64,000 nucleotides of DNA, taken from Candidatus Omnitrophota bacterium. GTDB lineage: Bacteria; Omnitrophota; Gorgyraeia; JABMRG01; JAFGKX01. The first letter of the stretch is position 1; the number at the start of each line of letters is the position of its first letter. Location: NCBI GenBank assembly GCA_043797125.1, contig JAZDPX010000032.1:10425-74424 (forward strand). The letters are read 5' to 3'. The translations under genes were made by a program, and so were the position numbers. The notes beneath the pieces were generated by a model. The model saw only the letters and a program-made list of their open reading frames with translations. It was not told where the DNA came from and searched no databases. This document shows positions 5,405 to 49,771 of the stretch, piece after piece.

Positions 5405-5430
5405 GTAGCGCAGGCTTAAGCCTGCGCTAC
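5405..5430. repeat. CTTAAG-centred perfect palindrome (type 1) GTAGCGCAGGCTTAAGCCTGCGCTAC
   Basis: Perfect 26-bp palindrome immediately 3' of a gene. Member of a family recurring at least 8 times in the window. Confidence 0.85.
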
Positions 5431-5489
5431 CGAAAATTGCAGGAGCTGGTGGTTAAGTTTAAGCGAATTTAAAAGATAAGGAGCCCGAT

Positions 5490-6989
5490 ATGCGCTTAGT
5501 AGTTTTTTTATTGCTAATTAGCAGTATCTGTTTTTGTCCACAACTTAGTTACGCGCAGCAAAAAGATAAATTAGAGCAGGCGATATCGCTTTATCAGCAC
5601 GAGAATTATGAAGAAGCGCTCCAGCTGCTTAAGCAATTGCGCCAGGAAAACCCGGATTCTTCAAATGTCGCCTATTACACGGGCCTTACGTATAAACGCC
5701 TGCAGGATTATCCTTCTGCAAGGCCTCATCTCGAGGCAGCCGTCACGCTTAAACCGCCAGTAAAGAACGCATATATAGAACTAATAGATCTGCTTTATCA
5801 ATCCGACCAAACCGAAGATGCAAAGAAATGGATAGAGCTAGCCAGAGAGAATGAAACTTCGCCGTCACAACTTGCATTTTTCAGCGGCCTTTTATCCTTG
5901 AAAGTAAAGGATTTTGAAAGCGCTATAAAATCATTCGACGAGGCGCAAGAGCTTGATCAGGCGCTTGCAGATACCATTAAATATTATAAGGCCCTTGTAT
6001 ACGCGCAGTCAAAGCAGCTTAATAAGGCAAGGGATATTTTCAGGGAAATTATCACCAAAGACCCAACCACAGATCTTGCGGCATTTGCGGACGAGTACAT
6101 GGATGTTCTCTCTATTCAGGAAAAGGCAACCAGGCCGTTTAAGGGCTACCTGGGGTATGCGCTTCAATATGATGATAATGTTATCCTGAAGCCCAATGAT
6201 AAATCGCTGTCAACAGACACAGCGGGCGAGGATGATTGGCGTTCAGTCTTCGCAGGGTACGCGGAATATAATTTAAAGCCGTCAGATTTTTTTGGTGTGA
6301 AAACAACATATTCTATTTCTGATTCGAAGCAGTTTGATTTAGGATTCTACGACATGGTAAGCCAGGAGGTGGGGCTGCAGCCAGCATTTTATTTAAAAAA
6401 TGCGGCGGTGAGTTTTCCTGTTCGTTGCGTATTTTCAAGGTTAAACGATAAAAGGTATGTCCAGACCCTTGATGTAAGCAACTTAAATAATATAAAGATT
6501 AATAAAAACCAGATGCTTCAGGTTATGTTTCAATATAACAGGGATGATTTCAGATGGATAGTTACGGTTGACAATGACAACAAGGACTCAAATGAATATA
6601 TCGGTTCGTTAGGCTGGTTTTTGTTTTTTACAAAAAACAACGAGGGCTTTATTAACCTGCGTTATGCCGTAAATTTCGATGACGCGAAAGGCAACAACTG
6701 GAAATATTTCGGCAACAAGCTGACCTTTACCAGCACCGTTCCTATCGGGAAAAAATTAAAATGGAGCTTAGTCGGCGATTATTACAGGCAGGATTATAGA
6801 AAAATAAACACTTCTTATGATAAAGAGCGCTATGATAATATCCTGACTGTGTCAAACCTCGTGTCTTATGAAATATTTAAAGATATAGATTTGCAAATCC
6901 AGCATACATTTATGGATGATTTGGCAAGCATAGGAGTTTATAAATATAACCGCAACATATATAGCTTAGGTCTAAAATACAGATTTTAG
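5490..6989 (+). CDS. TPR-repeat protein, putative outer-membrane beta-barrel (C-terminal Phe)
   Basis: RBS AAGGAG then ATG. Signal peptide MRLVVFLLLISSICFCPQLSYA. TPR-like N-terminal third. The C-terminal half has alternating hydrophobic beta-strand patterns and ends in ...LGLKYRF, a typical OMP C-terminus. Confidence 0.45.
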   Translation: MRLVVFLLLISSICFCPQLSYAQQKDKLEQAISLYQHENYEEALQLLKQLRQENPDSSNVAYYTGLTYKRLQDYPSARPHLEAAVTLKPPVKNAYIELIDLLYQSDQTEDAKKWIELARENETSPSQLAFFSGLLSLKVKDFESAIKSFDEAQELDQALADTIKYYKALVYAQSKQLNKARDIFREIITKDPTTDLAAFADEYMDVLSIQEKATRPFKGYLGYALQYDDNVILKPNDKSLSTDTAGEDDWRSVFAGYAEYNLKPSDFFGVKTTYSISDSKQFDLGFYDMVSQEVGLQPAFYLKNAAVSFPVRCVFSRLNDKRYVQTLDVSNLNNIKINKNQMLQVMFQYNRDDFRWIVTVDNDNKDSNEYIGSLGWFLFFTKNNEGFINLRYAVNFDDAKGNNWKYFGNKLTFTSTVPIGKKLKWSLVGDYYRQDYRKINTSYDKERYDNILTVSNLVSYEIFKDIDLQIQHTFMDDLASIGVYKYNRNIYSLGLKYRF

Positions 6990-7008
6990 ACAAAAAAAGG
7001 GGTGCTTT

Positions 7009-9208: not shown

Positions 9209-9210
9209 TC

Positions 9211-9579: not shown

Positions 9580-9600
9580 TAGCAGAATTTATATGCAATA

Positions 9601-9629: not shown

Positions 9630-9643
9630 AAAAGGAGGCTTAT

Positions 9644-10639: not shown

Positions 10640-10644
10640 AGTTG

Positions 10645-10675: not shown

Positions 10676-10679
10676 AAAA

Positions 10680-11558: not shown

Positions 11559-11559
11559 A

Positions 11560-12117
11560 GTGTATGCGATTGCGTTTGCGGCTGATATAAAAGACATAAA
11601 ACCCCCGATACTTAGGCATCCCGCTTCTTTGCCTAAGAATTATTTTTTGCTTTTTGTTGTTGCCGCGCTGCTTTTGGCGGCAATACTCTTATTTATGAGA
11701 TATTTGCGAAAAAGAAAATTAAAGGCCCAAACGCAAAATTCTGTTCAGATAAAAAGGCCTGCGCACGAAATAGCTTACGAAGCATTGCAGGCCTTAAAAC
11801 TCAAGAACCTTCCGGGCCAAGGCAGGATAAAGGAGTATTATATCGAGCTTTCCTGGATTGCCAGGATTTATATAGAAAACCGTTTTAACATCAGGGCGCC
11901 GGAGATGACTACGGAGGAATTTCTGTTTTTCTTAAGAGAATCGGAAGTGTTATCTGGGGCGCATAAAAATTTGCTCAAGGAATTTTTGACGTTGTGCGAT
12001 ATTGTAAAATTCGCAAAATATGCCCCCTTGCAAAACCAGATAGATGACAGTTTCGATGCTGCCAAAAGATTAGTTGATGAAACAAAAGAGCAAAATATAG
12101 CTGTAGCGCAGGCTTAA
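11560..12117 (+). CDS. Membrane protein of the MoxR/Bat operon (DUF4381-like); GTG start
   Basis: Single TM segment (FLLFVVAALLLAAILLF) then a soluble domain. Position between the DUF58 gene and batA matches the conserved operon. The palindrome at 12103-12128 overlaps its stop codon, with TAA supplied by the central CTTAAG. Confidence 0.45.
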   Translation: MYAIAFAADIKDIKPPILRHPASLPKNYFLLFVVAALLLAAILLFMRYLRKRKLKAQTQNSVQIKRPAHEIAYEALQALKLKNLPGQGRIKEYYIELSWIARIYIENRFNIRAPEMTTEEFLFFLRESEVLSGAHKNLLKEFLTLCDIVKFAKYAPLQNQIDDSFDAAKRLVDETKEQNIAVAQA

Positions 12118-12128
12118 GCCTGCGCTAC
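12103..12128. repeat. CTTAAG-centred palindrome (type 1) overlapping a stop codon
   Basis: gtagcgcaggcttaagcctgcgctac. The stop TAA lies within the central cttaag. Confidence 0.85.
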
Positions 12129-12154: not shown

Positions 12155-13150
12155 ATGATTTTTAAGGATGTTTGGGTTTTATTGTTTTTTCCTGTTGCCT
12201 GTGCGCTTTTGTATTTTTTTAAAAGAAGAAGCACAACCTCCGGCATCAGATTTTCTTCCGCAAGATTAGTCAAAGGATATAAACCCACCTTAAAACTTGT
12301 ATTAGCGGACAAATTATTTTACTTGAGGCTTGCCGCGATATTCTTATTTTTTATAGCCCTGGCAAGGCCGCGGATACCGCTGGAAGAAACAAAAGTAGAG
12401 ACAGAAGGCATAAATATCGTTCTGGCAATTGACTCATCAGGCAGCATGCTGGCCGAAGATTTTAAGATAGCCGGCGTACGCCAGAACAGGCTGCAGGTGG
12501 TAAAGGGCGTTGTCCGGGATTTTATTAAGGCAAGAATTTCAGATAAGATAGGCATAGTTGCTTTTGCGGCGCGCGCGTATACCGTATGCCCGCTGACTCT
12601 GGATTATGACTGGCTTATCAGCAATTTGGAAAGGATAGAAATCGGCGCCATTGAAGATGGCACAGCGATAGGCTCCGCTATAAGCTCTTCTTTAAACAGG
12701 CTTAGGGATACACAGGCAAAAAGCAAAATTATTATTCTTTTAACAGACGGGGTCAATAACGCGGGCAAGATTTCCCCTCAAGCCGCGGCGGACGCTGCCA
12801 AAGCGCTTGGAATAAAGATTTATACGATAGGCGCGGGAACCAAGGGCCTGGTGCCGTATCCCGCGAGAAACATGTGGGGCCAGACAGTTTATCAAAATGT
12901 TGAGATAGACATAGATGAAGATATATTAAGAGAAATCGCGCAAAAGACCAACGGCCAATATTTCAGGGCAACAAGCACGGAGGCGCTAAAAGACATCTAT
13001 AAAGAGATAGACTCACTTGAGACAACGCCTATCCAGGAAAGCGGTTTTCAGGAATACAAAGAACTGTTTAGCAAATTTTTGGTTTTTGGATTAGCGCTTT
13101 TGATTTTAGAAATAGTTTTATCTAATACGGTTTTAAGGAAAATACCATAA
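12155..13150 (+). CDS. batA: vWA-domain membrane protein, BatA-like
   Basis: N-terminal TM segment. vWA MIDAS DxSxS (LAIDSSGSM). C-terminal TM segment. Confidence 0.8.
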   Translation: MIFKDVWVLLFFPVACALLYFFKRRSTTSGIRFSSARLVKGYKPTLKLVLADKLFYLRLAAIFLFFIALARPRIPLEETKVETEGINIVLAIDSSGSMLAEDFKIAGVRQNRLQVVKGVVRDFIKARISDKIGIVAFAARAYTVCPLTLDYDWLISNLERIEIGAIEDGTAIGSAISSSLNRLRDTQAKSKIIILLTDGVNNAGKISPQAAADAAKALGIKIYTIGAGTKGLVPYPARNMWGQTVYQNVEIDIDEDILREIAQKTNGQYFRATSTEALKDIYKEIDSLETTPIQESGFQEYKELFSKFLVFGLALLILEIVLSNTVLRKIP

Positions 13151-14160
13151 TGAGATTCGGGCAGATTGCGTATGCTTTTGGTTTTTGGATAGTCTTAGCC
13201 TTGAGCCTTTTTTTTGTCTGGGCGTTTAAGGAAAAGGCCAAGGCAATGCGCAGGTTTGCCGATCAGGGCTTTTTAAAGGAGCTTGCGGCTACGCTAAACA
13301 GAAAAAGACAGATAATAAAAACAGTAATAATTTTATTAGCTATTTTCTTAAGCGTTCTGGCTTTAATGCGCCCGCAATGGGGATTTAAATGGCAGGAGGT
13401 CAAGCGAAGAGGCCTTGATATACTTATTGCCATAGACACATCTAAAAGCATGCTGGCTACAGACGTAAAACCAAACAGGCTTGAAAGGTCCAAGCTGGCG
13501 GTTAAAGACCTGGTAAAAAAATTAAAAGGCGACAGAATCGGGCTTGTGGCGTTTTCCGGCACGGCATTTTTGCAGTGCCCGCTAACAATAGATTACGGCG
13601 GGTTTTTGCTGGCTTTAAATGATTTAAATACAGGCATAATCCCCAGAGGCGGCACAGCTATATCAAGCGCCATAAAAACAGCCATCGACAGCTACAAGGG
13701 CGGACAGAAAAAATACAAGATACTCGTTATTATTACCGACGGAGAAGACCTTGAGGGCGACGCGGTTAAGGCGGCAGAGGACGCGAAAAAGGAAAATGTA
13801 AAGATTTTCTGCATAGGAATAGGAACCGAAGCAGGCGAGCTTATACAATTGACTGACGAAAACGGCAATAAGTCTTTTTTAAAGGATGAGAACGGCAATG
13901 TCGTAAAATCAAGATTAAACGAGGTTATCTTAAAGAAAATAGCCCTATCAACGGGCGGGGCGTATGTGCATTCAAGCGGCGCTGAATTCGGGCTTGATAT
14001 GATTTACGAGGAAAGGCTCTCCAAGATGGAGAAACAAGAGATAAAAGCAAAGATGAATAAGCTTTTTATCGAGCGCTTTCAGATACCATTGGTTTTTGCG
14101 CTGCTTCTTTTAATCATAGAGCCTTTTATAGGCGACAGAAAGAGGGGGCAGGCTATGTAG
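13150..14160 (+). CDS. batB: vWA-domain membrane protein, BatB-like
   Basis: TM segments, vWA MIDAS IAIDTSKSM. ATG overlaps the batA stop. Confidence 0.8.
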   Translation: MRFGQIAYAFGFWIVLALSLFFVWAFKEKAKAMRRFADQGFLKELAATLNRKRQIIKTVIILLAIFLSVLALMRPQWGFKWQEVKRRGLDILIAIDTSKSMLATDVKPNRLERSKLAVKDLVKKLKGDRIGLVAFSGTAFLQCPLTIDYGGFLLALNDLNTGIIPRGGTAISSAIKTAIDSYKGGQKKYKILVIITDGEDLEGDAVKAAEDAKKENVKIFCIGIGTEAGELIQLTDENGNKSFLKDENGNVVKSRLNEVILKKIALSTGGAYVHSSGAEFGLDMIYEERLSKMEKQEIKAKMNKLFIERFQIPLVFALLLLIIEPFIGDRKRGQAM

Positions 14161-14162: not shown

Positions 14163-14178
14163 GTAGCGCAGGCTTAAG
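14163..14178. repeat. Truncated left arm of the type-1 palindrome (GTAGCGCAGGCTTAAG), immediately upstream of a complete type-2 copy
   Basis: gtagcgcaggcttaag followed by taaatgta and then the full palindrome at 14187-14218. Confidence 0.7.
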
Positions 14179-14186: not shown

Positions 14187-14218
14187 GCCGTAGCGGAGCC
14201 TTAAGGCTCCGCTACGGC
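14187..14218. repeat. CTTAAG-centred palindrome (type 2) GCCGTAGCGGAGCCTTAAGGCTCCGCTACGGC
   Basis: Perfect 32-bp palindrome. Arms differ from type 1 by paired, compensatory substitutions (CAGG/CCTG to GAGC/GCTC). Confidence 0.85.
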
Positions 14219-15105: not shown

Positions 15106-15137
15106 GATGTAGCGCAGGCTTAAGCCTGCGCTACATC
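15106..15137. repeat. CTTAAG-centred palindrome (type 1, extended to a 32-bp perfect palindrome)
   Basis: gatgtagcgcaggcttaagcctgcgctacatc. Confidence 0.85.
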
Positions 15138-17954: not shown

Positions 17955-18060
17955 GTCGTTCGGCTGGGGCCCCTCCGAAATTCACCTAAAGATAGTAGGT
18001 CAGGCTTAAGCCTGACCTACTATCCAAGGGTTCAGTTTCGGTGTCCCCAGCCTGCACTCC
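17955..18060. repeat. About 105-bp composite imperfect palindrome with a perfect 34-bp CTTAAG-centred core (type 3: GATAGTAGGTCAGGCTTAAGCCTGACCTACTATC, 17991-18024)
   Basis: The flanks cggctggggcccctccgaaattcacc and ggttcagtttcggtgtccccagcctg are imperfect inverted repeats around the perfect core. Lies within the 530-bp non-coding region upstream of the giant gene. Confidence 0.7.
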
Positions 18061-25091: not shown

Positions 25092-27815
25092 ATGCCGAGT
25101 TTACCTAAAAAAGCAGTAACTGTCCTTATTGCCGCTATTTTCATCGCGCAAAGCGCAAATCTGAATTACCTTTCCGCTCAAACCCAATTAAACACGAACG
25201 CATTGCGGGCCATGTCCATGGCTATTGAGCTTGATCCAAACAAGGCTATTATAGAAAAAGTAAAAGAATACTACGCTGAAAAAGGCATAAATGCCGATGA
25301 TTATTATGTTCCGCCCATAGTAGGCAAAGATATATTTGGAAAAGAGCTGACCATAAATAAAGGCGATATAGTTATCCATGCTAACCATCGCGCAGACAGA
25401 GTTTTTGAAAGCTTATTTTCCCTTACAGATCCTGATTTTAATAAAGACAGCCAAAGGTTTGATACCCCTGATTTGGGCTTGCATGTCGTCGCCTTTGCTA
25501 ACCACGATTCAAAATATTTCGCTAAGCATGGCATAGAAGCTGCTTTTACCATCAACGAAGAAGACTACAGGCCTTCATACGATTCCTTGGTGGATGTCTT
25601 GTATGAAAATAATATCAAGCAGGGGTATTTTACAGAAACAGATAAGGGTAAACATGTAAGTTATTTTTTAGCAGGCCAGCGTAATCTTCCTTATGAGGAT
25701 ATGGGGATACACGTGGAAATCGTTGCTTCTCAATCAGTATCTGATAAGGAAAAAGACCCTAATATGCAGTATAAGGAAATAACATCAAACGCCATTAACT
25801 TTTTACAGAATAACAGCTCTGATGAGCCTGCTTTTATTTTGGTAAATTATCCTGTCGATATCCAAGGCCACAATATTAAATGTAATAAGCAAAGAGCTAT
25901 TGATACAATATCAGCCTGCGATAGGGAAGCTGAAAAACTATATAATGCGGTAAAAGAAATGGGCGGTGTATGGATAGATACATCCGACCACGGCAACGTT
26001 GAAGAGTTAGCTGTTTTGGATAAAAATGGCATGCCTGTAACGGATAAATACGGCAATATCCCTTATGACCAGCATACTGCTAATTCTGTTCATTGCATAA
26101 TAGACGGTTTAGGAAATGTTAATCTTAAAGATGGCAAGGGCCTGGCCAATATCGCCCCCACCGTCCTTGAAATTTTAGGAATTGATAAGCCGAAGGATAT
26201 GGAAGAAAGCCTGCTTAAAGATTATAAATACAAAAAGATAAAAGGCCCTGTTGTGGTTGTTGTGCGCGACGGCTGGGGTAAAAGCAAGTTTACTAACCCT
26301 GAGGCATTGGAATGGAATGGATTAGAACTGGCTAAACCCGCCTTTTTTAACCGGCTTAAAGAAACCGCCCCCATTACTTGGATTAAGGCGCACGGAAGCG
26401 CTGTTGGCCTGCCTGATTATCAGGAGGGCGATTCTGATAACGGCCATCGCACCATAGGGGCAGGAAAGATACTGCCGACATTATATAAATTAATTATAGA
26501 CCAAATAGAATCAGGCGATTTTTATAAAAACGAAGTTCTGCGCAATATCTTTAAAAAAGCCATAGAAGAAAAGCACGATATATGCGTGATGGGCCTTGAT
26601 TCCGACGGAGGAATACACTGCGATCATAAGTATTTTCTTGCTTTAATAGAAATGGCAAGGTGTTTTGACATTAAAAAGCATGGCATAAAGCTGAAGCTTT
26701 TTCCGATTTTAGACGGAAGAGACAGGATGACCAGAATATATGAACAAAGCGGAGCTTACTATCTTGAGGATTTAGACAGAAAGATAAAAGAAGCGGGTCT
26801 TGCAGGCGCTGCATATATAGCTCAAACTGTCGGAAGATATATGGCAATGGACAGAGACGCTGTAAACGCTGATAAGGAAAGAGAACGCCTTGAGCAGAAA
26901 TTATCCGATGCCTTAAAACCGGATGATCCCGCGAATAAAGCTGACAATATTGTGAAATTAGTATCAGGTATTACAGCATCTGTGACTAAGGAAATTGCAA
27001 AAACAGAAAAAGAGCTGGCCAAGGCAAAAGACGCGCCAAAACAGGCATTTTTTAACAGCATAATTAATTGTTTGAATGCCATTGGGCAGCTTAATGAGAA
27101 ATTTAATCTTGAAAACGCGAAAGGCAAAAATAGGAATAATGAGAAAATAATTGAATTAGGAAAGAAAATAGCTGAAAACAAAAGACAGGAGTGGCTTATC
27201 CGCGCTAGCGCATTATGGCAGGAGCGTTACAAGGTAGCTTACGATGCCTGGGTTTATGGGAGCAAAGCTCCTCAAATGAAGTTCATGGAAGCCGCCGCGC
27301 ACAAAGATGAGCCTTTGAGCGAGACGGTTGATTATTCAGAACCGCAGCCTGCAGATAAAAAGGGTGTATGTGTACAATACAGCTATGTTCTGCATTTAAG
27401 AAATAAGTTAAAAAAACATTTTGATACAACAACAACTTCAACTCTAACAGCTGCGGAACTAACATTAGAGGAAATAATAGTGGAATGTGTTAAAAATGAA
27501 GTATTTTATGCTTCAAACCCATTATTTATTAAAGATTCTGAATCTATAAAAGCTGATGGGGTTTATTTTTCAAGCCGTGCATTTAGGAGTAGAAAGTCAA
27601 TCACGGAACAAAATAAGCTCTGCAAGGATATATATATTCTTACGGGTGCGGGAATGGCCGATGTTGAGTCAGTAGCAAGATGGCAGTACCTGTTTGTAGG
27701 TAACCTGGATGAGAAAATATTAAAAAATGGATTCTCTGATAATCCAGGCGCAGAGAAAGTCTATCCTAATGATTCGCAGAAGCTGCTGGACATCGCAATT
27801 CTTGCGGCTGCGTAA
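25092..27815 (+). CDS. 907-aa protein: signal-peptide-like N-terminus with motif shared with the giant protein, circularly permuted 2,3-bisphosphoglycerate-independent phosphoglycerate mutase (GpmI-like) domain, about 200-aa unknown C-terminus
   Basis: C-terminal-half GpmI motifs come first: DIVIHANHRADR (FMNFRADR), FILVNYPVDIQGHN (ICNYPNGDMVGHTG), WIDTSDHGNVEEL (ITADHGNAE), LANIAPTVLEILGI (DIAPTMLSLMG). N-terminal-half motifs come second: VVVVVRDGWG (VLVILDGYG), AHGSAVGLPDYQEGDSDNGHRTIGAGKI (GLPDRQMGNSEVGHxNLGAGR), VMGLDSDGGIHCDHKYF (GLLSAGGVHSH), ILDGRDR (FLDGRDT), GRYMAMDRD (GRYYAMDRD). Confidence 0.85.
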   Translation: MPSLPKKAVTVLIAAIFIAQSANLNYLSAQTQLNTNALRAMSMAIELDPNKAIIEKVKEYYAEKGINADDYYVPPIVGKDIFGKELTINKGDIVIHANHRADRVFESLFSLTDPDFNKDSQRFDTPDLGLHVVAFANHDSKYFAKHGIEAAFTINEEDYRPSYDSLVDVLYENNIKQGYFTETDKGKHVSYFLAGQRNLPYEDMGIHVEIVASQSVSDKEKDPNMQYKEITSNAINFLQNNSSDEPAFILVNYPVDIQGHNIKCNKQRAIDTISACDREAEKLYNAVKEMGGVWIDTSDHGNVEELAVLDKNGMPVTDKYGNIPYDQHTANSVHCIIDGLGNVNLKDGKGLANIAPTVLEILGIDKPKDMEESLLKDYKYKKIKGPVVVVVRDGWGKSKFTNPEALEWNGLELAKPAFFNRLKETAPITWIKAHGSAVGLPDYQEGDSDNGHRTIGAGKILPTLYKLIIDQIESGDFYKNEVLRNIFKKAIEEKHDICVMGLDSDGGIHCDHKYFLALIEMARCFDIKKHGIKLKLFPILDGRDRMTRIYEQSGAYYLEDLDRKIKEAGLAGAAYIAQTVGRYMAMDRDAVNADKERERLEQKLSDALKPDDPANKADNIVKLVSGITASVTKEIAKTEKELAKAKDAPKQAFFNSIINCLNAIGQLNEKFNLENAKGKNRNNEKIIELGKKIAENKRQEWLIRASALWQERYKVAYDAWVYGSKAPQMKFMEAAAHKDEPLSETVDYSEPQPADKKGVCVQYSYVLHLRNKLKKHFDTTTTSTLTAAELTLEEIIVECVKNEVFYASNPLFIKDSESIKADGVYFSSRAFRSRKSITEQNKLCKDIYILTGAGMADVESVARWQYLFVGNLDEKILKNGFSDNPGAEKVYPNDSQKLLDIAILAAA

Positions 27816-27826
27816 GAAGAGTGTAA

Positions 27827-27860
27827 AGCCGTAGCGGAGCCTTAAGGCTCCGCTACGGCT
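27827..27860. repeat. CTTAAG-centred palindrome (type 2, 34-bp perfect) plus an adjacent small hairpin cttgccggctggcaag; apparent insertion into a 3' motif that is uninterrupted at 62989-63015
   Basis: agccgtagcggagccttaaggctccgctacggct, flanked by gtgtaaag on the left and gcgttaagtgtaaagt on the right. Confidence 0.8.
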
Positions 27861-27973
27861 TGCCGGCTGGCAAGCGTTAAGTGTAAAGTAACAGCGTAGG
27901 ATATTTGATGTAAAGATAGCCGTAACTATTACAAATAACGTTGCGGCTATTTTAATATGAAGGATTTAATTTT

Positions 27974-30424: not shown

Positions 30425-32140
30425 TTGAACAACACCCAGATAGCAGATATATTTGACAAAATAGCCGATATACTTGAACTTAAAGGTGAAAACCCGTTTA
30501 AGATCCGCGCATATCGCAGGGGGGCTGTCTCTATCAGGTCAATGCCTCAAGAAGTATCCGAATTTGCCAAAAGCAATCCCCTTACGTCTTTACCCGGCAT
30601 AGGCAAGGACCTGTCAGAAAAAATAACAGAGCTAATAAACACACATTCTCTCAAATATTATGAAGACCTGAAAAAAGCCACGCCCGCAGGCCTTCTTGAT
30701 ATAATGACGATTCCCGGAGTAGGTCCGAAGACCACCAAGCTTTTATACGACTCACTTAATATAGACAGCATTGAAAAGCTAAAAAAACACGCCCAACAGC
30801 ATAAGCTAAGTAAACTCCCTCATTTAAAAGAAAAAACCGAACAAAATATATTAGAAGGCATAAGCTTTCTTGAGAAAAGCTCAGGGCGAATGCTTCTTGC
30901 CAACGCAGTGTCTGCGGCGGAGTCTGCAATAGATTACCTGAAAAAAGCTGCGCCTGGCGCTGTTTTTTCCGCGGCAGGAAGCACGCGCAGAATGAAAGAT
31001 ACCATAAGGGATATTGATATTCTTGCGGCATCAAAAAAGCCAAAAACGGTAATGGATGCATTTGTGCATATGCCGCATGTCGATAAAATATCATCTAGCG
31101 GTGAAACAAAATCCTCAATACTGACAAAGGAAAATATCCAAATAGACATGCGCGTTGTTGACCCAAGCTCTTACGGCGCGGCGCTCGTGTATTTTACAGG
31201 TTCAAAAGAGCACAATGTGGGGCTAAGGCACCTTGCTATGAAAAGAGGCCTTAAGATAAATGAATATGGCGTATTTAAACACAATACCAATAAAAGGATT
31301 GCCGGGAAAACCGAGCAGGAAGTATATAAAAGCGTAGGCCTGGAATTTATTCCCCCGGAATTGCGCGAAAACAGGGGCGAAATAGAAGCTGCCGCAAAAG
31401 CCAAGCTGCCTAAACTCATAGAGGCTAAAGACATAAAAGGGGATTTGCACGCGCATTCAGATTATTCGGATGGAAAGCACAAACTTCAGGATATAGCGCA
31501 GTATTGCAAGGAAATCGGTTACGAATATATTGCCATAACCGACCATTCAAAATCCCTTAAGATAACAGGCGGTTTAAGCGAAGAAGCGCTTGCGAAAAAG
31601 AACAAGGAGATAGACGCCTTAAATAAAAAAATAAAAGGCATTAAAATATTAAAAGGCGCGGAAGTGGATATAGATTCGCAAGGCCAACTTGATTATTCAG
31701 ACGATATTTTAAAAGACATGGATGTTGTTATAGCTGCCATACACACAAGTTTTAAGCAGCCCAAGGATATAATGACAAAAAGGATACTTAAGGCAATGGA
31801 TAACAAATATGTCCACATAATAGCGCACCCCACAGGAAGGCTGCTTAATACAAGAGAGGCCTGTCAGGTAGACTTAAACGCGGTTATTAAACACGCCAAA
31901 GACACAAAAACAGCGATAGAAATAAACGGTAACCCCCAGCGTCTTGATTTGGATGATATTCACGCAAAGCAAGCCGCTGAAATAGGAGTGAAGATTGTTT
32001 TAACTACTGATATGCACCGGCTTGAACAATTCGAGTATATGCGCTTCTGTGTATCAGTAGCCCGTCGGGCATGGCTTACCAAAGCTTGCGTCCTTAACAC
32101 GCTTTCAGCAAGTGCTTTCTTGCAGGCCTTGAGGAAGTAA
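30425..32140 (+). CDS. polX: DNA polymerase X family protein with C-terminal PHP domain (TTG start abutting the ferredoxin stop)
   Basis: N-terminal HhH/pol-beta-like FKIRAYRRGA...LPGIGKDL...IPGVGPKT, nucleotidyltransferase region, PHP motifs DLHAHSDYSDG ... ITDH. Confidence 0.8.
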   Translation: MNNTQIADIFDKIADILELKGENPFKIRAYRRGAVSIRSMPQEVSEFAKSNPLTSLPGIGKDLSEKITELINTHSLKYYEDLKKATPAGLLDIMTIPGVGPKTTKLLYDSLNIDSIEKLKKHAQQHKLSKLPHLKEKTEQNILEGISFLEKSSGRMLLANAVSAAESAIDYLKKAAPGAVFSAAGSTRRMKDTIRDIDILAASKKPKTVMDAFVHMPHVDKISSSGETKSSILTKENIQIDMRVVDPSSYGAALVYFTGSKEHNVGLRHLAMKRGLKINEYGVFKHNTNKRIAGKTEQEVYKSVGLEFIPPELRENRGEIEAAAKAKLPKLIEAKDIKGDLHAHSDYSDGKHKLQDIAQYCKEIGYEYIAITDHSKSLKITGGLSEEALAKKNKEIDALNKKIKGIKILKGAEVDIDSQGQLDYSDDILKDMDVVIAAIHTSFKQPKDIMTKRILKAMDNKYVHIIAHPTGRLLNTREACQVDLNAVIKHAKDTKTAIEINGNPQRLDLDDIHAKQAAEIGVKIVLTTDMHRLEQFEYMRFCVSVARRAWLTKACVLNTLSASAFLQALRK

Positions 32141-32146: not shown

Positions 32147-32176
32147 CCGTAGCGGAGCCTTAAGGCTCCGCTACGG
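32147..32176. repeat. CTTAAG-centred palindrome (type 2)
   Basis: ccgtagcggagccttaaggctccgctacgg, directly after the polX stop. Confidence 0.85.
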
Positions 32177-32188
32177 TTGTGGATTATA

Positions 32189-34960
32189 ATGAATAACAAA
32201 AACCATGATGTTATTGTAATCGGCGCGGGCCACGCAGGCTGCGAAGCTGCTTTGGCAAGTGCGCGCATGGGATGTCTCACCCTTATTATTACATTCAGCA
32301 AGGAGAAAATAGGATACATGTCCTGCAATCCGGCCATAGGCGGCTTGGGCAAGGGGCAGCTTGTCAAGGAAATCGATTCACTTGGCGGTGAAATGGCGCG
32401 CGCTACGGATTCCTGCGCAATACAATTCAGGATGTTGAATACCTCAAGAGGCGCTGCTGTGCGCTCATCGCGCGCGCAGGTTGACAGAAAAAGGTATTCT
32501 TTATATATGCAGAAGCAGCTGGCAAGCGAAAAAGGCCTCCAGATACTTGAGGATGAGGTTATAGGGTTAACGGTTAAAGGTGCGGTTGTTACAGGCGTAG
32601 AGCTTGCCGACGGAAATAAAATAAACGCCAAGGCAGTAATAGTAACTCCGGGCACATTTTTAAACGGTTTGATACACATTGGCATGAAAAGCTTTGAGGG
32701 CGGTAGGATAGAGGATAAAAAATCAAGCAAGCAGCTATCAGATTACTTAAAAGCCTTAGGGTTCAATATCCTGCGCTTTAAAACAGGCACATGCGCGCGT
32801 TTAGATGGCAAGACAATAGATTTTTCAAAGATGCAGCCTCAAATAGGTGACGAACCTCCTAAGCCTTTCTCCTTAAGCACGAAAAAACTTGATATTAACC
32901 AGGTTCCGTGTTATATTACTTATTCTAATAATAGGACACACGAGATTATTCTCAAAAATCTTGACCGCTCACCCCTATTTAGTGGAAAGATTACAGGCAC
33001 AGGCGTTCGCTACTGCCCTTCTTTTGAAGACAAGGTAGTTAAATTTCCTCATCACGATAGGCACCAGATATTTATTGAACCCGAAGGCAAGGATAGCGAT
33101 GAATTCTATCCTAACGGGCTTTCGACAAGTTTGCCGGAAGACGTTCAGATGGAGTTTATACATTCTATTCCCGGCTTGGAAAACGCCAAAGCCAACCGTT
33201 TAGGTTACGGGATAGAGCACGACGCAGTAGACCCGACGGCACTTTACCCTACTTTAGAAACAAAGCTCATTGAAAATTTGTATTTAGCCGGCCAGATTAA
33301 CGGCACAACAGGCTATGAAGAGGCAGCTGCTCAAGGCCTGATAGCAGGCATAAACGCCTCGTTAAAAGTAAAAAATAAACAGCCTTTGATTTTGGACCGT
33401 TCAAGCAGCTATATCGGAGTTTTAATAGACGATCTTACAACTAAAGGTACAAATGAGCCTTATCGCATGCTTACATCGAGAGTCGAATACAGGCTGCTTT
33501 TGCGCGAGGATAACGCTGATGCGCGTTTGCGTAAAATCGGTTTTGAGTTGGGCCTTGTAAGCGAGGCTGAATTGAAGGATACCGAGGAAAAGCAGAAAAA
33601 TATCGCGCAGGGAATAAAATATTTGGAAGAGCACAGCACATCCGTCGACGGCGAAAAGATCAATCTTTGCCAGTTTTTGAAGAGGCCGCAGGTAAGCATA
33701 GAAGGCATAAAGGAAAGTATACCCTTTGATTATTCCGCCGATGTACTTAAAGGCATTGAGATTGAAGTTAAATATTCAGGCTTCATCAAAAGGCAGTCCG
33801 CGCAGATAAGAAGCTTTAAAAATCTTGAGAAGATAAAAATACCCGCTAATTTAGATTACGTTAATATGAGCGCGCTTTCGCTTGAGACAAAAGAAAAGCT
33901 TTCCAAATTTAAGCCTGTGAATTTAGGCCAGGCGAGCAGGATATCGGGGATTACTCCGGCAGCGATAAGCGTGTTAATGATATACCTGAAGAAAGAGGGG
34001 ACGGTTCACTCCCAAGCGTGGAAAGTGTCCCCAAAGCACAGAAGTGGGGGTAAGGGGACACTTCCCAATCTTGGGAGTGAACCGTCCCCATATCGTAAAT
34101 TTTCACAATATTTAAAAGACAAATTCGGATGCAAAGTTTATAAAGTAAGCGTTGACGCGGGATTTGACTGTCCTAACCGCGACGGAAAGTTAAGCAAGGC
34201 AGGATGTATATTTTGCGATAATAAGGCGTTTAGTTTTAACAGCCGTTTTAGTCAAAAGCCGCTTAAAAAACAGATAGAAGACGGTATAGCGTTCGGTAAA
34301 AACAGGTACGCGGCAGAAAAATTCATAATATATTTTCAAGCTAATACAAACACATACGCGCCGGTTTGTGTTCTTAAGGAAAAATACGACACAGTTAAAG
34401 AATTCGGCGATATAGCAGGTATAAGCATAGGCACTAGGCCTGATTGCGTTAATGATGAGATTTTAGATTTAATAGCAAGCTATGCGTCAGATTACGATGT
34501 GTGGGTTGAGTATGGTTTGCAGAGCATACATAAAAAATCTTTGGAATTTTTAAACAGAAACCATTCTTACGAAGATTTTTTGGACGCTGTTCGAAAAGCA
34601 AAAAAAAGAAACATTAAGATATGCGCGCATGTGATTATAGGCCTTCCCAACGAAACGAAAGATGAAATTTTACAGACAGCAAAGGAGCTGGCGCGTCTTA
34701 AAATAGACGGCGTAAAAATTCATCCTCTTTATATTGTAAAGGGAACAAGCCTTGAAGCGCTTTTTAGAAGCAGTGTGTATAAACCGCTGGAATTAGATGA
34801 GTTTGTAAATCTGGCAGCGGCATTTTTGGAGAATCTTTCGCCGGACACCGTGGTCCAGCGAATAGGCGCTGATTGCCCTCCGGAAATGCTTGTTGAGCCG
34901 TCGTGGATACTTGAAAAGGAAAGAGTTCTTAACATGTTGGATGAAAAGCTAAGGAGTTAA
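32189..34960 (+). CDS. mnmG: tRNA uridine-5-carboxymethylaminomethyl modification enzyme MnmG (GidA), fused in one reading frame to a TIGR01212-type radical SAM domain
   Basis: MnmG: DVIVIGAGHAGCEAA, ...GITPAAISVLMIYLKK (canonical C-terminus). Frame then continues through a 93-bp palindrome into KFGCKVYKVSVDAGFDCPNRDGKLSKAGCIFC (TIGR01212 radical SAM signature). No in-frame ATG/GTG/TTG is available for an independent radical SAM start near the junction. Confidence 0.7.
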   Translation: MNNKNHDVIVIGAGHAGCEAALASARMGCLTLIITFSKEKIGYMSCNPAIGGLGKGQLVKEIDSLGGEMARATDSCAIQFRMLNTSRGAAVRSSRAQVDRKRYSLYMQKQLASEKGLQILEDEVIGLTVKGAVVTGVELADGNKINAKAVIVTPGTFLNGLIHIGMKSFEGGRIEDKKSSKQLSDYLKALGFNILRFKTGTCARLDGKTIDFSKMQPQIGDEPPKPFSLSTKKLDINQVPCYITYSNNRTHEIILKNLDRSPLFSGKITGTGVRYCPSFEDKVVKFPHHDRHQIFIEPEGKDSDEFYPNGLSTSLPEDVQMEFIHSIPGLENAKANRLGYGIEHDAVDPTALYPTLETKLIENLYLAGQINGTTGYEEAAAQGLIAGINASLKVKNKQPLILDRSSSYIGVLIDDLTTKGTNEPYRMLTSRVEYRLLLREDNADARLRKIGFELGLVSEAELKDTEEKQKNIAQGIKYLEEHSTSVDGEKINLCQFLKRPQVSIEGIKESIPFDYSADVLKGIEIEVKYSGFIKRQSAQIRSFKNLEKIKIPANLDYVNMSALSLETKEKLSKFKPVNLGQASRISGITPAAISVLMIYLKKEGTVHSQAWKVSPKHRSGGKGTLPNLGSEPSPYRKFSQYLKDKFGCKVYKVSVDAGFDCPNRDGKLSKAGCIFCDNKAFSFNSRFSQKPLKKQIEDGIAFGKNRYAAEKFIIYFQANTNTYAPVCVLKEKYDTVKEFGDIAGISIGTRPDCVNDEILDLIASYASDYDVWVEYGLQSIHKKSLEFLNRNHSYEDFLDAVRKAKKRNIKICAHVIIGLPNETKDEILQTAKELARLKIDGVKIHPLYIVKGTSLEALFRSSVYKPLELDEFVNLAAAFLENLSPDTVVQRIGADCPPEMLVEPSWILEKERVLNMLDEKLRS
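33997..34089. repeat. 93-bp nested palindrome (20-bp perfect outer arms and about 12-bp inner arms) lying in-frame at the MnmG/radical-SAM junction
   Basis: ggggacggttcactcccaag ... ggaaagtgtcccc ... ggggacacttcc ... cttgggagtgaaccgtcccc. 93 bp = 31 codons with no stop. Confidence 0.8.
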
Positions 34961-41113: not shown

Positions 41114-41312
41114 AATGAGGACGCGATTTAGCGAGCGATAGCGAAGCTAAATCGCATGTCCGAATTTCACCCTTGACATTTTGTGTCCGACTTACCTTCA
41201 GGCAAAATGTCAAGGGTTTAATTCGCACCTTCATAGGGGAAATTCATAGAAGAATTAATTTATGTCAACCAAAGGGTTGCCATAAATTAAGTGCTCATTA
41301 AAGGAGTGAGGG

Positions 41313-42259: not shown

Positions 42260-44457
42260 ACAAAGATACATACAGGGCGTTAGGCCTGACAGACACCGAG
42301 TATGAAAAGATTTTAAGCCTGTTAGGGCGTGTGCCGTCACCTACGGAACTGGCGATGTTTTCTGTCGAGTGGTCGGAACACTGCGGTTACCCGCGTTCGC
42401 GAAACCTTCTTAAATTATTGCCGAAAAAAGGAAAATACCAGGTCTTGATAGGAGAAGATTCGGGCGGCATTATAGTAGATGACCTGGCCATTGTCTTTAA
42501 AATGGAAAGCCACAATCACCCCTCGCAGGTAGAGCCGAAACAAGGCGCTGCCACAGGCGTAGGCGGAATAATAAGGGATATCTTTACAGCAGGCGCAAGG
42601 CCTATTGCTTCGTTGAATTCTTTAAGATTCGGGCCGTTAAGCGAACCATATAACAGGTATCTTTTAAAAGGCGTGGTTGACGGAATACAATTTTACGGCA
42701 ACTGCCTTGGCGTGCCTACCGTCGGCGGGGAGATATATTTTGACGAAAGCTATTCGGGAAATTGCCTTGTAAACGCAATGAGTATCGGCATAGCGAAAAA
42801 GGACTGCCTTGCAAGGGCAAAGGCCTTTGGTGTAGGCAACTCGATTATGTACGTGGGCTCAAGCACGGGAAAAGACGGTATCGGCGGATGCAGCGTTTTG
42901 GCGTCGAGTGAATTTAAAGAAGGCGAAGAAAAAAGGCCAACAGTCCAGATAGGCGACCCTTTTACGGAAAAATGTTTGATAGAAGCGACATTAGAGGCAT
43001 TAGCCACGGGCCACGTAATCGGAATCAAGGATATGGGCGCAGCAGGGCTCACCTGTTCAACAAGCGAAATGGCTCAAGCCGGAGGCTGCGGCATAGACAT
43101 GGACCTGGATAAAGTTCCGCGCAGGGAAGAAAACATGGAACCATGGGAAGTGATGATGTCCGAATCACAGGAGAGGATGCTGGTTTGCGTTAAAAAGGGA
43201 AAAGAAAAAGAAATAGAGAAGATTTTTCAAAAATGGGATTTACACGGTGTTGTTATTGGAAAGGTTACTACAGACGGCATTGTGACAATTAAAGATAAAG
43301 GCAATATTGTGGCCCAAGTAAAGGCAAATGATTTAACCAATGCCCCTGTCTATGATATGCCTTATGTAAAGCCAAGCTCCCTGGATGAAATTATAAAGTT
43401 GGATATGAAAACAATTCCCCAACCTGAAGATTATAATGAGGTATTAATTAAATTATTGGAGTCACCATCAATAGCCAGCAAAGAATGGGTTTATCAGCAA
43501 TATGACCACATGGTGCAGACAAACACAATATGCCTGCCTAATATGGGCGCTAGTGTAGTCAGGTTAAAAGGCACTAAAAAGGCAATTGCAGCTACCACTG
43601 ACTGCAACAGCAGATATTGTTTTTTAAATCCCCATAGAGGCGCGCAGATTGCGATAGTGGAAGCGGCGAGAAATTTAGTAGCAGTCGGCGCAGAGCCTGC
43701 GGCAGTTACAGATTGCCTTAATTTTGGAAATCCTGAGAAACCTGACAGATTCTGGTATTTTAAGAATTGCGTAGAGGGTATTATAGATGCCTGTAAGGCA
43801 TTTAATATTCCAGTTGTAAGCGGCAACGTCTCGTTTTACAATGAAAACCCAAGAGGCGCTATTTACCCGACGCCTTCAATAGGAATGATCGGAATCATAG
43901 ATGATGTTAGCAGGGTCTGCACTCAGAATTTCAAAGACAAGGCCGATATAATAATGCTTTTGGGCGATTGCAAGGAAGAATTAGGCGCAAGCGAATATTT
44001 AAAGCAGGTTCACGGCCTTGTCAGAGGCGATGCGCCAAGCCTGGATTTGGCTTCGGAAAAAAATATCCAAAATGCAGCGCTTAAAATGATAAGAAACGGC
44101 CTTGTAAAATCCGCTCACGACTGCTCTGAAGGCGGATTAGCCGTTGCCATTTCAGAATGCTGCATAAGCGACAAAGAAAACATGATAGGCGCGGTGATTA
44201 ATAATCTTCCCTTTGATATCAGGAAGGACGCGCTTTTATTCGGAGAAACGCAGTCGCGCATTATCTTAAGCTGCAGTATGGATTGCGTTGATAAGATAAA
44301 AAAGACTGCCAAAGATAATGATGCCTCGCTGCATATAATAGGCACAGTCGGCGGCGATGTTTTAAAAATTTCAGCTAAACAAAAAGAGCTGATAAATATG
44401 CCTGTTGAAAAATTACATGACAGCTGGAGTAATTCTTTGAGGAAAATGATTGGTTGA
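42238..44457 (+). CDS. purL: Phosphoribosylformylglycinamidine synthase subunit PurL
   Basis: 739 aa. AIR-synthase-related duplicated domains; HNHPS motif ([11 protein letters not shown]). Confidence 0.9.
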
Positions 44458-44541
44458 GCGCAGATGATCACAGATTGAAAGACACAGATGATCACAGATA
44501 TCTGCGATCATCTTGTATCCTTTAATCTGTGATAATCTGCG
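44458..44541. repeat. 84-bp imperfect composite palindrome between purL and hisH (arms about 85% complementary), built from gatgatcacagat / atctgtgatcatc units
   Basis: gcgcagatgatcacagattgaaagacacagatgatcacagat | atctgcgatcatcttgtatcctttaatctgtgataatctgcg. Confidence 0.75.
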
Positions 44542-44562
44542 TTAAAAAAATTATTTTAAAAA

Positions 44563-45967: not shown

Positions 45968-46066
45968 AATTAAAAATTCAAAATGCAAAATGCAAAATTG
46001 CAATTTAAAATTCAAAAACTGGAGTTTTTTAATTTTTAATTGAAATTTTACATTTTTACTTTTTAA
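45968..46066. repeat. About 100-bp extremely AT-rich low-complexity spacer with inverted aaattcaaaat/attttgaattt ends; contains a 20-mer (aaaatgcaaaatgcaaaatt) identical to the batD start region
   Basis: aattaaaaattcaaaatgcaaaatgcaaaattgcaatttaaaattcaaaaactggagttttttaatttttaattgaaattttacatttttactttttaattttgaatttcaaaattt. Confidence 0.7.
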
Positions 46067-46101
46067 TTTTGAATTTCAAAATTTACGGAGTAAACTGGAC
46101 A

Positions 46102-47472: not shown

Positions 47473-47487
47473 AAGAAGGGCTTTACC

Positions 47488-49008
47488 ATGTTGAACAAAA
47501 CAGGGTTTGATAATTACAAATATTTAAAAGAACAGACAGAGGCTATCCTAAAGAGGGTAGAAAAATTTAATGACAAACTGTATCTTGAATTCGGAGGCAA
47601 GCTTATTTTTGATTATCACGCCGCAAGGGTCCTGCCCGGTTTTGACCCAAACGTGAAAATAAGGCTGTTGCAGCAGCTTAAGGATAAGGCGGATATAATA
47701 CTTTGTATTTTCGCGGGAGATATAGAAAGAAGAAAGGTAAGGGCTGATTTCGGCATTACCTATGATGTTGACGCGCTTAAACTGATAGATGATTTAAGAA
47801 AATGGCATATTGAGATATGCGCCGTGGTGATAACGCGTTTTAATAACCAGCCGGCGGCAAAAATATTCAAGAATAAATTAGAAAGAAGAGGCATAAAAGT
47901 ATATACCCACGCTGCTACAAAAGGGTACCCGAAAGATGTCGATTTAATAGTGAGCAATAAAGGCTACGGAGCGAATCAGTATATAGAGACTAAAAAGCCG
48001 CTGGTTATTGTCACCGGCCCGGGGCCGGGAAGCGGCAAATTAGCCACTTGCCTTTCGCAGCTTTACCATGATTATAAGAAGGGTAAAATGAGCGGATACG
48101 CGAAATTTGAAACATTTCCGATATGGAATCTGCCCCTGGAACATCCTGTAAATGTTGCTTATGAAGCAGCTACAGCTGATATCGGAGACTTTAACCAGAT
48201 AGACACATTTCATTTAAAGGCCTACAAGAAAAAGACAGTCAATTATAACCGCGACGTAGAAATATTTCCCGTAATAAGGAAGATACTTTTGAAGATAATG
48301 AAGACCAAAAAGCCGATATATAATTCTCCTACGGATATGGGCGTAAACCGCGCAGGATTCGGAATTACTGATGATAAAATAGTCAGGGAGGCTGCAAAAC
48401 AGGAGGTTATAAGGCGTTATTTCAGGTATAACTGCGAATACCTGATGGGATTTGTGGAAAAGGACGCTGTCGAAAGGCTGGAGTCACTGATGAAAAGGCT
48501 TAAGCTCAAACCGCAGGACAGAAACGTCGTTGAACCCGCGCGAGTTGCTGCTGAAGACGCGAAAAACAAAAATAAAGGAAACGAGGGAATTTTTTGCGGC
48601 TCTGCAATCGAGCTTAAAGACGGCACGATCGTTACAGGAAAAAATTCTGAGCTTCTTCACGCCGCATCAAGCCTTATCTTAAACGCGGTAAAAAAATTGG
48701 CGGAGCTGCCGGATAAAATACACCTTCTATCACCCAGCACAATAGATGCAATAGGTGTTTTAAAAAAGAGCATCTCAAACGCAAAGAGCGTAAACCTCGA
48801 TTTGGAAGAAGCGTTGATAGCCCTTAGCATAAGCGCGTCAACAAATACGGCTGCGCAGCTTGCCATGGAAAAATTAAACCAACTGCAGGACTGCGAAGTG
48901 CATATGACCCACATGCCTACGCCAGGGGATGAAACAGGATTAAGAAGGCTCGGGGTTAATCTTACGACAGATGCTAATTTCTCCAGCAAAAGCCTTTTTG
49001 TGGTATAA
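47488..49008 (+). CDS. DUF1846/UPF0371 family protein
   Basis: N-terminal FDNYKYLKEQTEAILKRV...KLYLEFGGKLIFDYHAARVLPGFDPN and later VIVTGPGPGSGKLATCLSQLYHD, as I recall for UPF0371 proteins. Confidence 0.55.
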   Translation: MLNKTGFDNYKYLKEQTEAILKRVEKFNDKLYLEFGGKLIFDYHAARVLPGFDPNVKIRLLQQLKDKADIILCIFAGDIERRKVRADFGITYDVDALKLIDDLRKWHIEICAVVITRFNNQPAAKIFKNKLERRGIKVYTHAATKGYPKDVDLIVSNKGYGANQYIETKKPLVIVTGPGPGSGKLATCLSQLYHDYKKGKMSGYAKFETFPIWNLPLEHPVNVAYEAATADIGDFNQIDTFHLKAYKKKTVNYNRDVEIFPVIRKILLKIMKTKKPIYNSPTDMGVNRAGFGITDDKIVREAAKQEVIRRYFRYNCEYLMGFVEKDAVERLESLMKRLKLKPQDRNVVEPARVAAEDAKNKNKGNEGIFCGSAIELKDGTIVTGKNSELLHAASSLILNAVKKLAELPDKIHLLSPSTIDAIGVLKKSISNAKSVNLDLEEALIALSISASTNTAAQLAMEKLNQLQDCEVHMTHMPTPGDETGLRRLGVNLTTDANFSSKSLFVV

Positions 49009-49019
49009 TAAATACCGAT

Positions 49020-49742
49020 ATGGCAAAGACTAAAAAGACACATACAAAAGAATCAGATACCGGCAAGCAAGTGATAGGCGCCTTAGCCAAAATAAGCGAG
49101 GTTATTACCTCCGATCTGTATCTTGAAGATATTCTAAAATTAATAGTTAATGTCACTGCCGAGGCAATGGGCTCCAAGATATGTTCTCTTATGCTGCTGG
49201 ACAAGGGAGGTAATGAGCTTTCAGTCAAGGCCACGCAGTCTGTGAGCGAAAGATATAATAAAAAACCTAATATAAAATTGGGTCAAGGCATAGCCAGCAT
49301 AGTGGCTAAAACAGGCGAGCCCATTACATCCGCGGACGTAAGAAAAGACGAGCGTTATTTAAGCCGCGATGTAGCGATAAAAGAGAAACTTTGTTCTTTA
49401 TTATGCGTGCCTTTGATTTTTAAAAAGAGGGTCATAGGCGTGCTTAACTGCTATACAGCAAAGCCGCATCGTTTTACGCAGAATGAGATAAGCGTGATAA
49501 AATCCGTTGCGAATCAGGCTGCCATTGTTATCGAGAATTTCAGGCTGGTTATTGAGTCCAAGGTAATAAAAGAAGAGCTTGAGGCCAGGAAGATAATAGA
49601 AAAGGCCAAAGGCATCTTAATGAAGCGCGAGAATTTATCCGAGCAGGACGCCTACCAGAAAATCCGAAAATACAGCATGGATAACCGCAAGTCCATGCGT
49701 GAAGTTTCCGAAGCGATTGTGCTAAGTGAAGAGATAAAATGA
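49020..49742 (+). CDS. GAF + ANTAR domain RNA-binding antiterminator-type regulator
   Basis: GAF-like region (KICSLMLLDKGGNELSVKA...VIGVLNCY). C-terminal ANTAR motif (ARKIIEKAKGILMKRENLSEQDAYQKIRKYSMDNRKSMREVSEAIV). Confidence 0.75.
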   Translation: MAKTKKTHTKESDTGKQVIGALAKISEVITSDLYLEDILKLIVNVTAEAMGSKICSLMLLDKGGNELSVKATQSVSERYNKKPNIKLGQGIASIVAKTGEPITSADVRKDERYLSRDVAIKEKLCSLLCVPLIFKKRVIGVLNCYTAKPHRFTQNEISVIKSVANQAAIVIENFRLVIESKVIKEELEARKIIEKAKGILMKRENLSEQDAYQKIRKYSMDNRKSMREVSEAIVLSEEIK

Positions 49743-49771
49743 CTTAGCAGGCCTTAAGGCCTGCTAAGTCA
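49740..49771. repeat. CTTAAG-centred palindrome (type 4, 32-bp perfect) TGACTTAGCAGGCCTTAAGGCCTGCTAAGTCA, beginning in the ANTAR gene stop codon
   Basis: Perfect palindrome. Arms differ again from types 1-3 by compensatory changes while retaining CTTAAG. Confidence 0.85.

Follow-up and report, generated by a model that had tools for sequence, protein, structure and literature searches.

What are the CTTAAG-centred palindromes that recur at the 3' ends of genes in a 64,000-nucleotide stretch of a Candidatus Omnitrophota genome (contig JAZDPX010000032.1, positions 10,425 to 74,424; hereafter the window), and what keeps their arms complementary? An inverted-repeat scan, together with a palindrome walk outward from every CTTAAG, identified eight perfect CTTAAG-centred palindromes in the window, namely seven canonical copies and one atypical copy at 49738, and in addition one half copy, in agreement with the original prediction of at least eight copies. 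The canonical core is 26 nt long, GTAG-N7-TTAA-N7-CTAC, and the perfect palindromes extend to 26-36 bp; they are thus perfect as predicted, but exceed the upper limit of 34 bp that had been given. The degenerate pattern GTAGSNSAGSCTTAAGSCTSNSCTAC had seven matches in the window compared with 0.00 expected (100 shuffles), and a covariance model of the family, run on the window with its filters off, returned the same seven copies at 44-46 bits and no decayed relics. The GTAG tag is present in seven of the eight copies, the copy at 49738 having TTAG. Four arm variants occur in the window, and their arms are exactly complementary, as the original prediction had stated.

We consider it very probable that these palindromes belong to the GTAG-tagged superfamily of repetitive extragenic palindromes (REPs), short hairpins of DNA that are not autonomous and would be recognised and spread by a domesticated, single-copy HUH/Y1 enzyme, a REP-associated tyrosine transposase (RAYT, or TnpAREP), encoded elsewhere in the genome. 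They match the published definition of such REPs, in which GTAG stands directly before a perfect 7-bp stem with a 4-nt loop (PMC6006769; PMC8266576), and on the sequence level the family is one of GTAG-tagged REPs that appears to behave like the short perfect REPs of group 3. The features that point to this membership are a stem-loop-forming palindrome within 20-50 nt, the GTAG tag, an extragenic position near the upstream stop codon and, in related genomes, a REPtron, that is, a RAYT gene flanked by the palindrome. In REPs of this kind the tetranucleotide is GTAG or GTGG, placed 0-2 nt 5' of the stem. In the element, the GTAG tag and the TTAA loop are invariant, the 7-bp stem is free in sequence as long as it is paired, and CTAC closes the other end. 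The CTAC at the 3' end of the canonical copies is unlike the standard description of REPs; since it is the complement of the tag, both DNA strands present the same 5'-GTAG and hairpin.

Relatives were collected by scanning one genome per species for GTAGNNNAGNCTTAAGNCTNNNCTAC, a pattern that required the CTTAAG centre and left four pairs free, which gave at least 92 loci. Among the matches listed, most were in metagenome-assembled genomes (MAGs) of Candidatus Omnitrophota, and multiple copies were also found in Anaerolineae, Chloroflexus, Acidobacteriota and a Spirochaete MAG, with scattered single matches elsewhere. The occurrence of the same core in assemblies labelled as several phyla contradicts the earlier suggestion of a lineage-specific element. 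Sampled chunks of one Omnitrophota MAG contained at least about 16 matches; the density in the window is 8 copies per 64 kb. All copies have the same 26-nt geometry, and the dominant arm variant differs by assembly.

The arms of these relatives covary. Among the matches listed, 91 of 103 were complementary at all four free positions, and in 44 distinct cores 97.5% of the cells pair, versus 28-40% in controls with slid partners; six of the 11 pairs change on both sides. This stem covariation substantiates the proposal that selection acts on the hairpin and not on the primary sequence. In the 44 cores GTAG/CTAC and TTAA do not vary, and neither does one A-T pair, next to which a G-C pair is almost fixed. 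Most copies have the CTTAAG centre, partly by the design of the search, and TTTAAA and ATTAAT are also found as centres, both in these loci and beside RAYT genes. Because of these other centres, the conserved feature, as the compared cores indicate, is a loop of TTAA whose closing pair covaries; CTTAAG does not change in the window, as had been claimed, but it does across the family. Note that an enrichment of G-U pairs as a sign of selection on RNA was uninformative in this set, with only 14 non-Watson-Crick cells, 11 of them transition-type, and with the strand assignment of a palindrome being arbitrary.

The association with RAYT genes comes from the same loci. ORFs (open reading frames) with the HUH motif were sought in the loci fetched around the palindromes, and five of them adjoin palindromes: two genes of the Omnitrophota type encoding 163 aa (L013:3366-3857 and L073:1406-1897) and three Chloroflexota genes encoding about 215 aa (L009:5302-5964, L026:3976-4626 and L059:4446-5084). 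All five passed NCBIfam NF047646 (REP-associated tyrosine transposase) at its curated cut-off and matched Pfam Y1_Tnp, and all five were under the cut-off for IS200 transposases (NF033573; 30-34 bits versus 55). The two types are only about 32% identical to each other, and the best PDB match of the L073 protein, E. coli TnpAREP (4ER8), reached only E 4.7e-11 and 46 bits. A palindrome lies within about 100 nt of each of the five genes, on both sides in most cases, and some abut or overlap the gene ends. The REP upstream of the L026 gene is identical at 25 of 26 positions to variant a of the window (described below).

A reverse search was made with a RAYT protein against metagenome contigs. Its four closest homologues (L093-L096, 65-77% identity) each have 26-nt GTAG...ACGTTTAAACGT...CTAC palindromes with the TTTAAA centre no more than about 40 nt away; in L093-L095 these stand both upstream and downstream of the gene. 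The flanks of more distant RAYTs (30-45% identity) carry other REP types, several of which likewise have GTAG and CTAC at their opposite ends. In total, the palindrome closely flanks RAYT genes in nine loci labelled Omnitrophota (or closely related) or Chloroflexota, on both sides in most of them. REP/RAYT systems are defined by such a layout, the REPtron (PMC2817692; PMC8266576). The REP-like part of the original prediction was therefore sound, given the GTAG tag, the multiple extragenic copies, the covarying stems and the flanking of RAYT genes in related genomes.

How such copies would arise can be outlined from the biochemistry of IS200/IS605 and TnpAREP, on which the following steps are modelled. 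RAYT/TnpAREP acts on folded single-stranded REP DNA; the group 3 enzyme needs a perfect stem and specific loop bases (a TTTA loop in Marinomonas) and tolerates stem swaps, and GTAG guides the choice of the CT or CA cleavage site (PMC8266576). The hairpin would fold when the DNA is single-stranded, for example at the replication fork, and the RAYT would read the tag, the perfect stem and the loop bases, cleave at a nearby dinucleotide and transfer the strand, by which master variants would be copied to new intergenic sites. Such a mechanism would be expected to leave identical copies at unrelated sites, matching arms, a fixed loop and GTAG, and a dominant variant specific to each genome.

Several points weigh against this assignment. 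A canonical REP has a GTAG that is unpaired at one end, and its inverted form is no substrate, whereas here the tag pairs with CTAC and the symmetry is complete. Since the 64-kb window contains no RAYT gene (tblastn with the five RAYTs gave nothing better than E 0.2), we infer the link between its REPs and the RAYT of the host genome from the relatives. As to transposition, cleavage and insertion polymorphism, the argument is one of sequence comparison. The correction of quasi-palindromes by template switching could partly maintain the perfect symmetry instead of selection. Finally, the palindrome at 49738 is a poor fit to the family model, with a score of just 14.9 bits (E ~0.04), and its membership in the family is uncertain.

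The positions of the copies are those of extragenic elements. The + strand carries nearly all genes of the window; seven copies lie between co-directional genes and one (49738) between convergent genes. In six of the eight, the copy starts 0-14 nt past the upstream stop codon, and the distance to the next start codon is more variable. ORFs of at least 150 aa cover about 91% of the window, yet none of its seven canonical cores falls entirely within one, and in the sampled DNA, where the coverage is about 86%, only 19 of 119 cores do so. One Bat/MoxR operon has copies between its cistrons at 12103, 14163/14187 and 15106; its gene order is moxR (9644), DUF58 (10680), an unnamed ORF (11560), batA (12155), batB (13150), TPR (14236), batD (15171) and TPR (17006), and the copy at 17991 lies 211 nt past the last gene of this operon. 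The remaining copies follow HD-domain, metalloenzyme/iPGM-like, PolX/PHP and GAF-ANTAR genes.

These positions also form the starting point of the strongest alternative, in which the hairpins arose in place as RNA elements, either 3'-end processing or stabilising hairpins or terminators independent of a U-tract, with selection acting on the transcript. The copies are on the sense strand of co-directional genes, closely behind the stop codons, and as RNA they are predicted to fold into highly stable hairpins (-22 to -37 kcal/mol, z -5 to -9, with stems of 11-16 bp and a UUAA loop; no shuffle was equally stable). The 3' spacer of glnA, in a gene order (glnA, a fis-like gene, gltB) common to the window and to an Omnitrophota MAG (L012), contains a REP in L012 (363-388) and a classical, terminator-like hairpin with a T-run in the window (58138-58178). 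We regard this as a difference in occupancy, and thus turnover, at an orthologous site; the best tblastn matches of the window, in a locus set enriched for Omnitrophota, are to MAG loci of that phylum, at 55-68% amino acid identity. In addition, the REP of E. coli acts as an mRNA stabiliser and partial terminator (bioRxiv 10.64898/2026.03.23.713779).

Nevertheless, an origin of the copies as RNA elements is unlikely. It leaves unexplained both the identical 26-mers at unrelated loci with their genome-specific dominant variants and the presence of the same element beside RAYT genes in loci of two phyla. A constraint on RNA only would allow G-U pairs and would not need identical strands, whereas the copies are perfect Watson-Crick palindromes. 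A U-tract is lacking as well: terminator calling and direct reading found no T-tract past any copy on the + strand, as the original prediction had noted, the 3' flanks of the eight copies being cgaaaa, ggaagg, caggtt, gggaga, caaggg, gccggc, ttgtgg and cccgcg. Because of this, an intrinsic (Rho-independent) terminator was rejected.

The RNA hairpins fit best as a secondary consequence of REPs spread by a RAYT, a side effect known from other REPs, and not as their origin. Copies just past stop codons would be transcribed within operons as very stable RNA hairpins with no U-tract, and because of this placement a role at the RNA level is plausible; by analogy with an E. coli REP, they may protect the upstream mRNA or attenuate read-through into downstream genes. 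If the RNA-level effects of E. coli REPs apply, the four copies between the Bat/MoxR cistrons could set differing expression levels within the operon.

It is much less probable that the palindromes are ends or remnants of another mobile class, such as miniature inverted-repeat transposable elements (MITEs) of DDE transposons, the subterminal hairpins of IS200/IS605 or integron attC-like sites. Being short, multi-copy, hairpin-forming and intergenic would suit such elements, and RAYTs are a sister family of IS200/IS605 TnpA (PMC8266576). However, direct reading of the flanks revealed no internal body, target-site duplication or paired left and right ends, no transposase or integrase adjoins any copy in the window, and the associated genes pass the RAYT model while remaining under the IS200 cut-off. 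A DDE-transposon MITE in particular was rejected, as the whole unit is one 26-36 bp hairpin whose flanks have no direct duplication; the MITE-like character that had been suggested is not borne out, with no terminal inverted repeats around a body.

The least probable reading, to which we give hardly any credence, is that the palindromes are double-stranded recognition sites, that is, operators of a dimeric regulator or AflII-type (CTTAAG) restriction-modification sites, of which the original prediction had suggested only the latter, as something to test: the perfect dyad symmetry and the CTTAAG centre that is invariant in the window would suit it, but the arms covary where a sequence-specific duplex binder would keep them conserved, related copies have TTTAAA or ATTAAT in the middle, the sites lie past genes and not at promoters, CTTAAG is over-represented and not avoided (47 sites versus 25.6 +/- 4.9 expected, and still 38 outside the palindromes), and no restriction-modification domains were found among the window ORFs scanned.

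Among the known systems, the palindromes most resemble the REPs of group 3 and their TnpAREP (REPSm/SMAG of Stenotrophomonas maltophilia, REPMb of Marinomonas, and those of Pseudomonas). In both, short perfect palindromes stand right after GTAG, the stem is free but paired and the loop bases are specific (PMC8266576), dispersed copies are extragenic, and a single RAYT gene is flanked by its own REPs. They differ in that CTAC closes the other end here, so that the REP equals the inverted REP and the tag can pair, in that the loop is TTAA, in that the RAYTs are distant, and in that the hosts are Omnitrophota and Chloroflexota and not Proteobacteria. The REPs of E. coli, with their group 2 TnpAREP (4ER8, the best structural homologue), also have the GTAG tag, the extragenic 3'-end position and the REPtron, but their palindromes are longer and imperfect, with a bulge that is essential, and usually form pairs of REP and inverted REP in bacterial interspersed mosaic elements, whereas the copies described here are perfect and mostly single. 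An inverted REP doublet with a short spacer (the REPIN arrangement) was likewise not found in the window, where the only pair consists of the half copy at 14163 and the full copy at 14187. In IS200/IS605 (IS608, ISDra2), single-strand hairpins are also read by an HUH/Y1 enzyme, with a 5' tetranucleotide guiding the cleavage site; there, however, the hairpins bound an element that has its own tnpA and distinct left and right ends, whereas here the hairpin alone is repeated and the enzyme gene is single-copy and separate.

The families GTAG-1 to GTAG-24 of Di Nocera et al. (2013, PMC3733652) are similar in their tag, stems of 6-13 bp, short loops and complementary stem changes that define sub-families. 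According to that survey, GTAG REPs are known in Chloroflexi, Cyanobacteria, PVC and Proteobacteria, and they lie near upstream stop codons and between unidirectional or convergent genes, donate stop codons and nest in other palindromes, all of which is reproduced by the present family; their tag is described as unpaired at one end, whereas here it is paired. In the text and supplements of the survey that were searched we found no CTTAAG or TTAAG family, and the peptides it gives for GTAG-23 of Chloroflexus aggregans are incompatible with the sequence of the present family. A full-text literature search with the three commonest 12-mer centres returned unrelated papers only, a scan of the whole window against Rfam at gathering thresholds gave no match, and our literature search found no paper linking REPs or RAYTs with Omnitrophota. 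The palindromes are, then, an undescribed family within the known GTAG-tagged kind, an ordinary type of bacterial repeat. Because no such paper was found, they extend the range of REPs and RAYTs to the Omnitrophota, an uncultured and little-studied phylum. One core (GTAG, TTAA loop, 26-nt geometry) is common to RAYTs about 32% identical, in loci labelled as two phyla. What recognition requires can be read from the natural variants, in which tag, loop and one A-T pair stay the same and pairing suffices elsewhere, and they would form a handy set of substrates for TnpAREP. For annotation, the REP label prevents the copies from being misread as terminators, operators or restriction sites.

About a fifth of the copies have the 9-mer TTATCCACA, which equals the DnaA-box consensus, 2-3 nt outside the REP hairpin, and it is a frequent flank module of the Omnitrophota copies. 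In the loci and the window together (739 kb), 21 of 34 perfect occurrences of TTATCCACA are REP-adjacent at 2-3 nt. In the window, a perfect box lies at 5393-5401 on the + strand, 3 nt upstream of the REP at 5405, and a degenerate box, TGTGGATTA, lies at 32178-32186 beside the REP at 32147. The box also abuts or adjoins the RAYT gene in most of the six Omnitrophota-type REPtrons (L013:3318/3921/3960, L073:1310/1901, L093-L096). The full Omnitrophota REP unit might be a palindrome of about 50 bp, TTATCCACA-NN-GTAG...CTAC-NN-TGTGGATAA, with perfect DnaA-box consensus 9-mers as its outer modules, an idea that we think improbable. If the boxes bind DnaA, the family would scatter high-affinity DnaA sites over the genome, and titration of the initiator or coupling of RAYT/REP activity to replication would be possible. 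The symmetric, doubly tagged hairpin would also make both strands substrates. It is equally possible that the box is only a cleavage or recognition flank of the RAYT, as it has CA dinucleotides, and that its likeness to the DnaA box is coincidental.

The individual copies are as follows. Variant a, GTAGCGCAGG-CTTAAG-CCTGCGCTAC, occurs at 5405-5430 (26 bp, 45.8 bits, RNA fold -22.2 kcal/mol), 14 nt past the stop codon of an HD-domain gene (4761-5390) and with the next start codon 59 nt on, and at 12103-12128 (26 bp, fold -25.9 kcal/mol), inside the Bat/MoxR operon and 26 nt before batA (12155). The latter copy gives ORF 11560-12117 its last four codons and its TAA stop codon (12115-12117). The copies thus sit at or overlap stop codons as had been predicted, but TAA was not donated twice; only this ORF takes it from CTTAAG. 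ORF 13150-14160 (batB) ends with TAG two bases ahead of the half copy, and ORF 49020-49742 (GAF-ANTAR) ends with TGA inside the outer arm of the palindrome at 49738.

The half copy, GTAGCGCAGGCTTAAG at 14163-14178, consists of only the left arm of variant a and CTTAAG, 2 nt past the batB stop codon (14160). It is followed at 14187-14218 by variant b, GCC-GTAGCGGAGC-CTTAAG-GCTCCGCTAC-GGC (32 bp, 44.2 bits; fold including the half copy -36.8 kcal/mol), with the TPR gene (14236) starting 17 nt downstream. The half copy stops exactly after CTTAAG, and in other loci (L026:4636, L084:6961, L040:4213 and others) several imperfect copies combine the arms of two variants, with the junction at the centre, as in GTAGGAC...GCGCTAC; the loop may therefore be a point of breakage or exchange.

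Variant a with a GAT/ATC extension is found at 15106-15137 (32 bp, fold -31.2 kcal/mol); the TPR gene has its stop codon (15093) 12 nt upstream, and batD (15171) begins 33 nt downstream. Variant b occurs twice more, with an AAGCC/GGCTT extension at 27826-27861 (36 bp, fold -36.6 kcal/mol), 10 nt past the stop codon of ORF 25092-27815, and at 32147-32176 (30 bp, fold -33.1 kcal/mol), 6 nt past that of the PolX/PHP gene (30425-32140) and with mnmG directly next. The atypical palindrome at 49738-49773 (36 bp, fold -28.3 kcal/mol) has, besides the TTAG tag, a distance from tag to centre that is 1 bp shorter. Variant c, GATA-GTAGGTCAGG-CTTAAG-CCTGACCTAC-TATC, is found at 17991-18024 (34 bp, 44.5 bits). 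It is nested in a longer imperfect inverted repeat at 17962-18053 (GGGGCCCCTCCGAAATTCACC.../...GGTTCAGTTTCGGTGTCCCC), and the composite folds at -59.8 kcal/mol (z -9.2).

The arms of this longer repeat resemble those of an element at 33997-34089, a likeness in sequence that suggests a second repeat family, one element of which is nested with a REP of the first. The element at 33997-34089 is a 93-bp inverted repeat (GGGGACGGTTCAC...GTGAACCGTCCCC, arms 92% complementary) in frame within ORF 32177-34960, between the MnmG domains (aa 11-601) and a radical-SAM domain (aa 676-926). Because the repeat lies in frame and no stop codon intervenes, the MnmG and radical-SAM genes read as one ORF of 927 aa, which could be a repeat-mediated fusion, a lost stop codon or an assembly error. 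An 11-mer of this repeat, GGGGACGGTTC, recurs in L120, where palindromes formed by it bracket a Y1-transposase-like gene.

Other long inverted repeats, with no match in Rfam, were found upstream of purS (two, one of them with TTGACA) and between purL and hisH (44-nt arms, 80% complementary), at 41158-41290 and 44443-44557. The region 48000-53700 has a flat GC skew and contains the only long minus-strand genes of the window, a histidine-kinase-like gene (49839-51626) and a UPF0236 fragment (51778-52266), together with a Fic/DOC gene (52485-53654), and may be a small acquired region.

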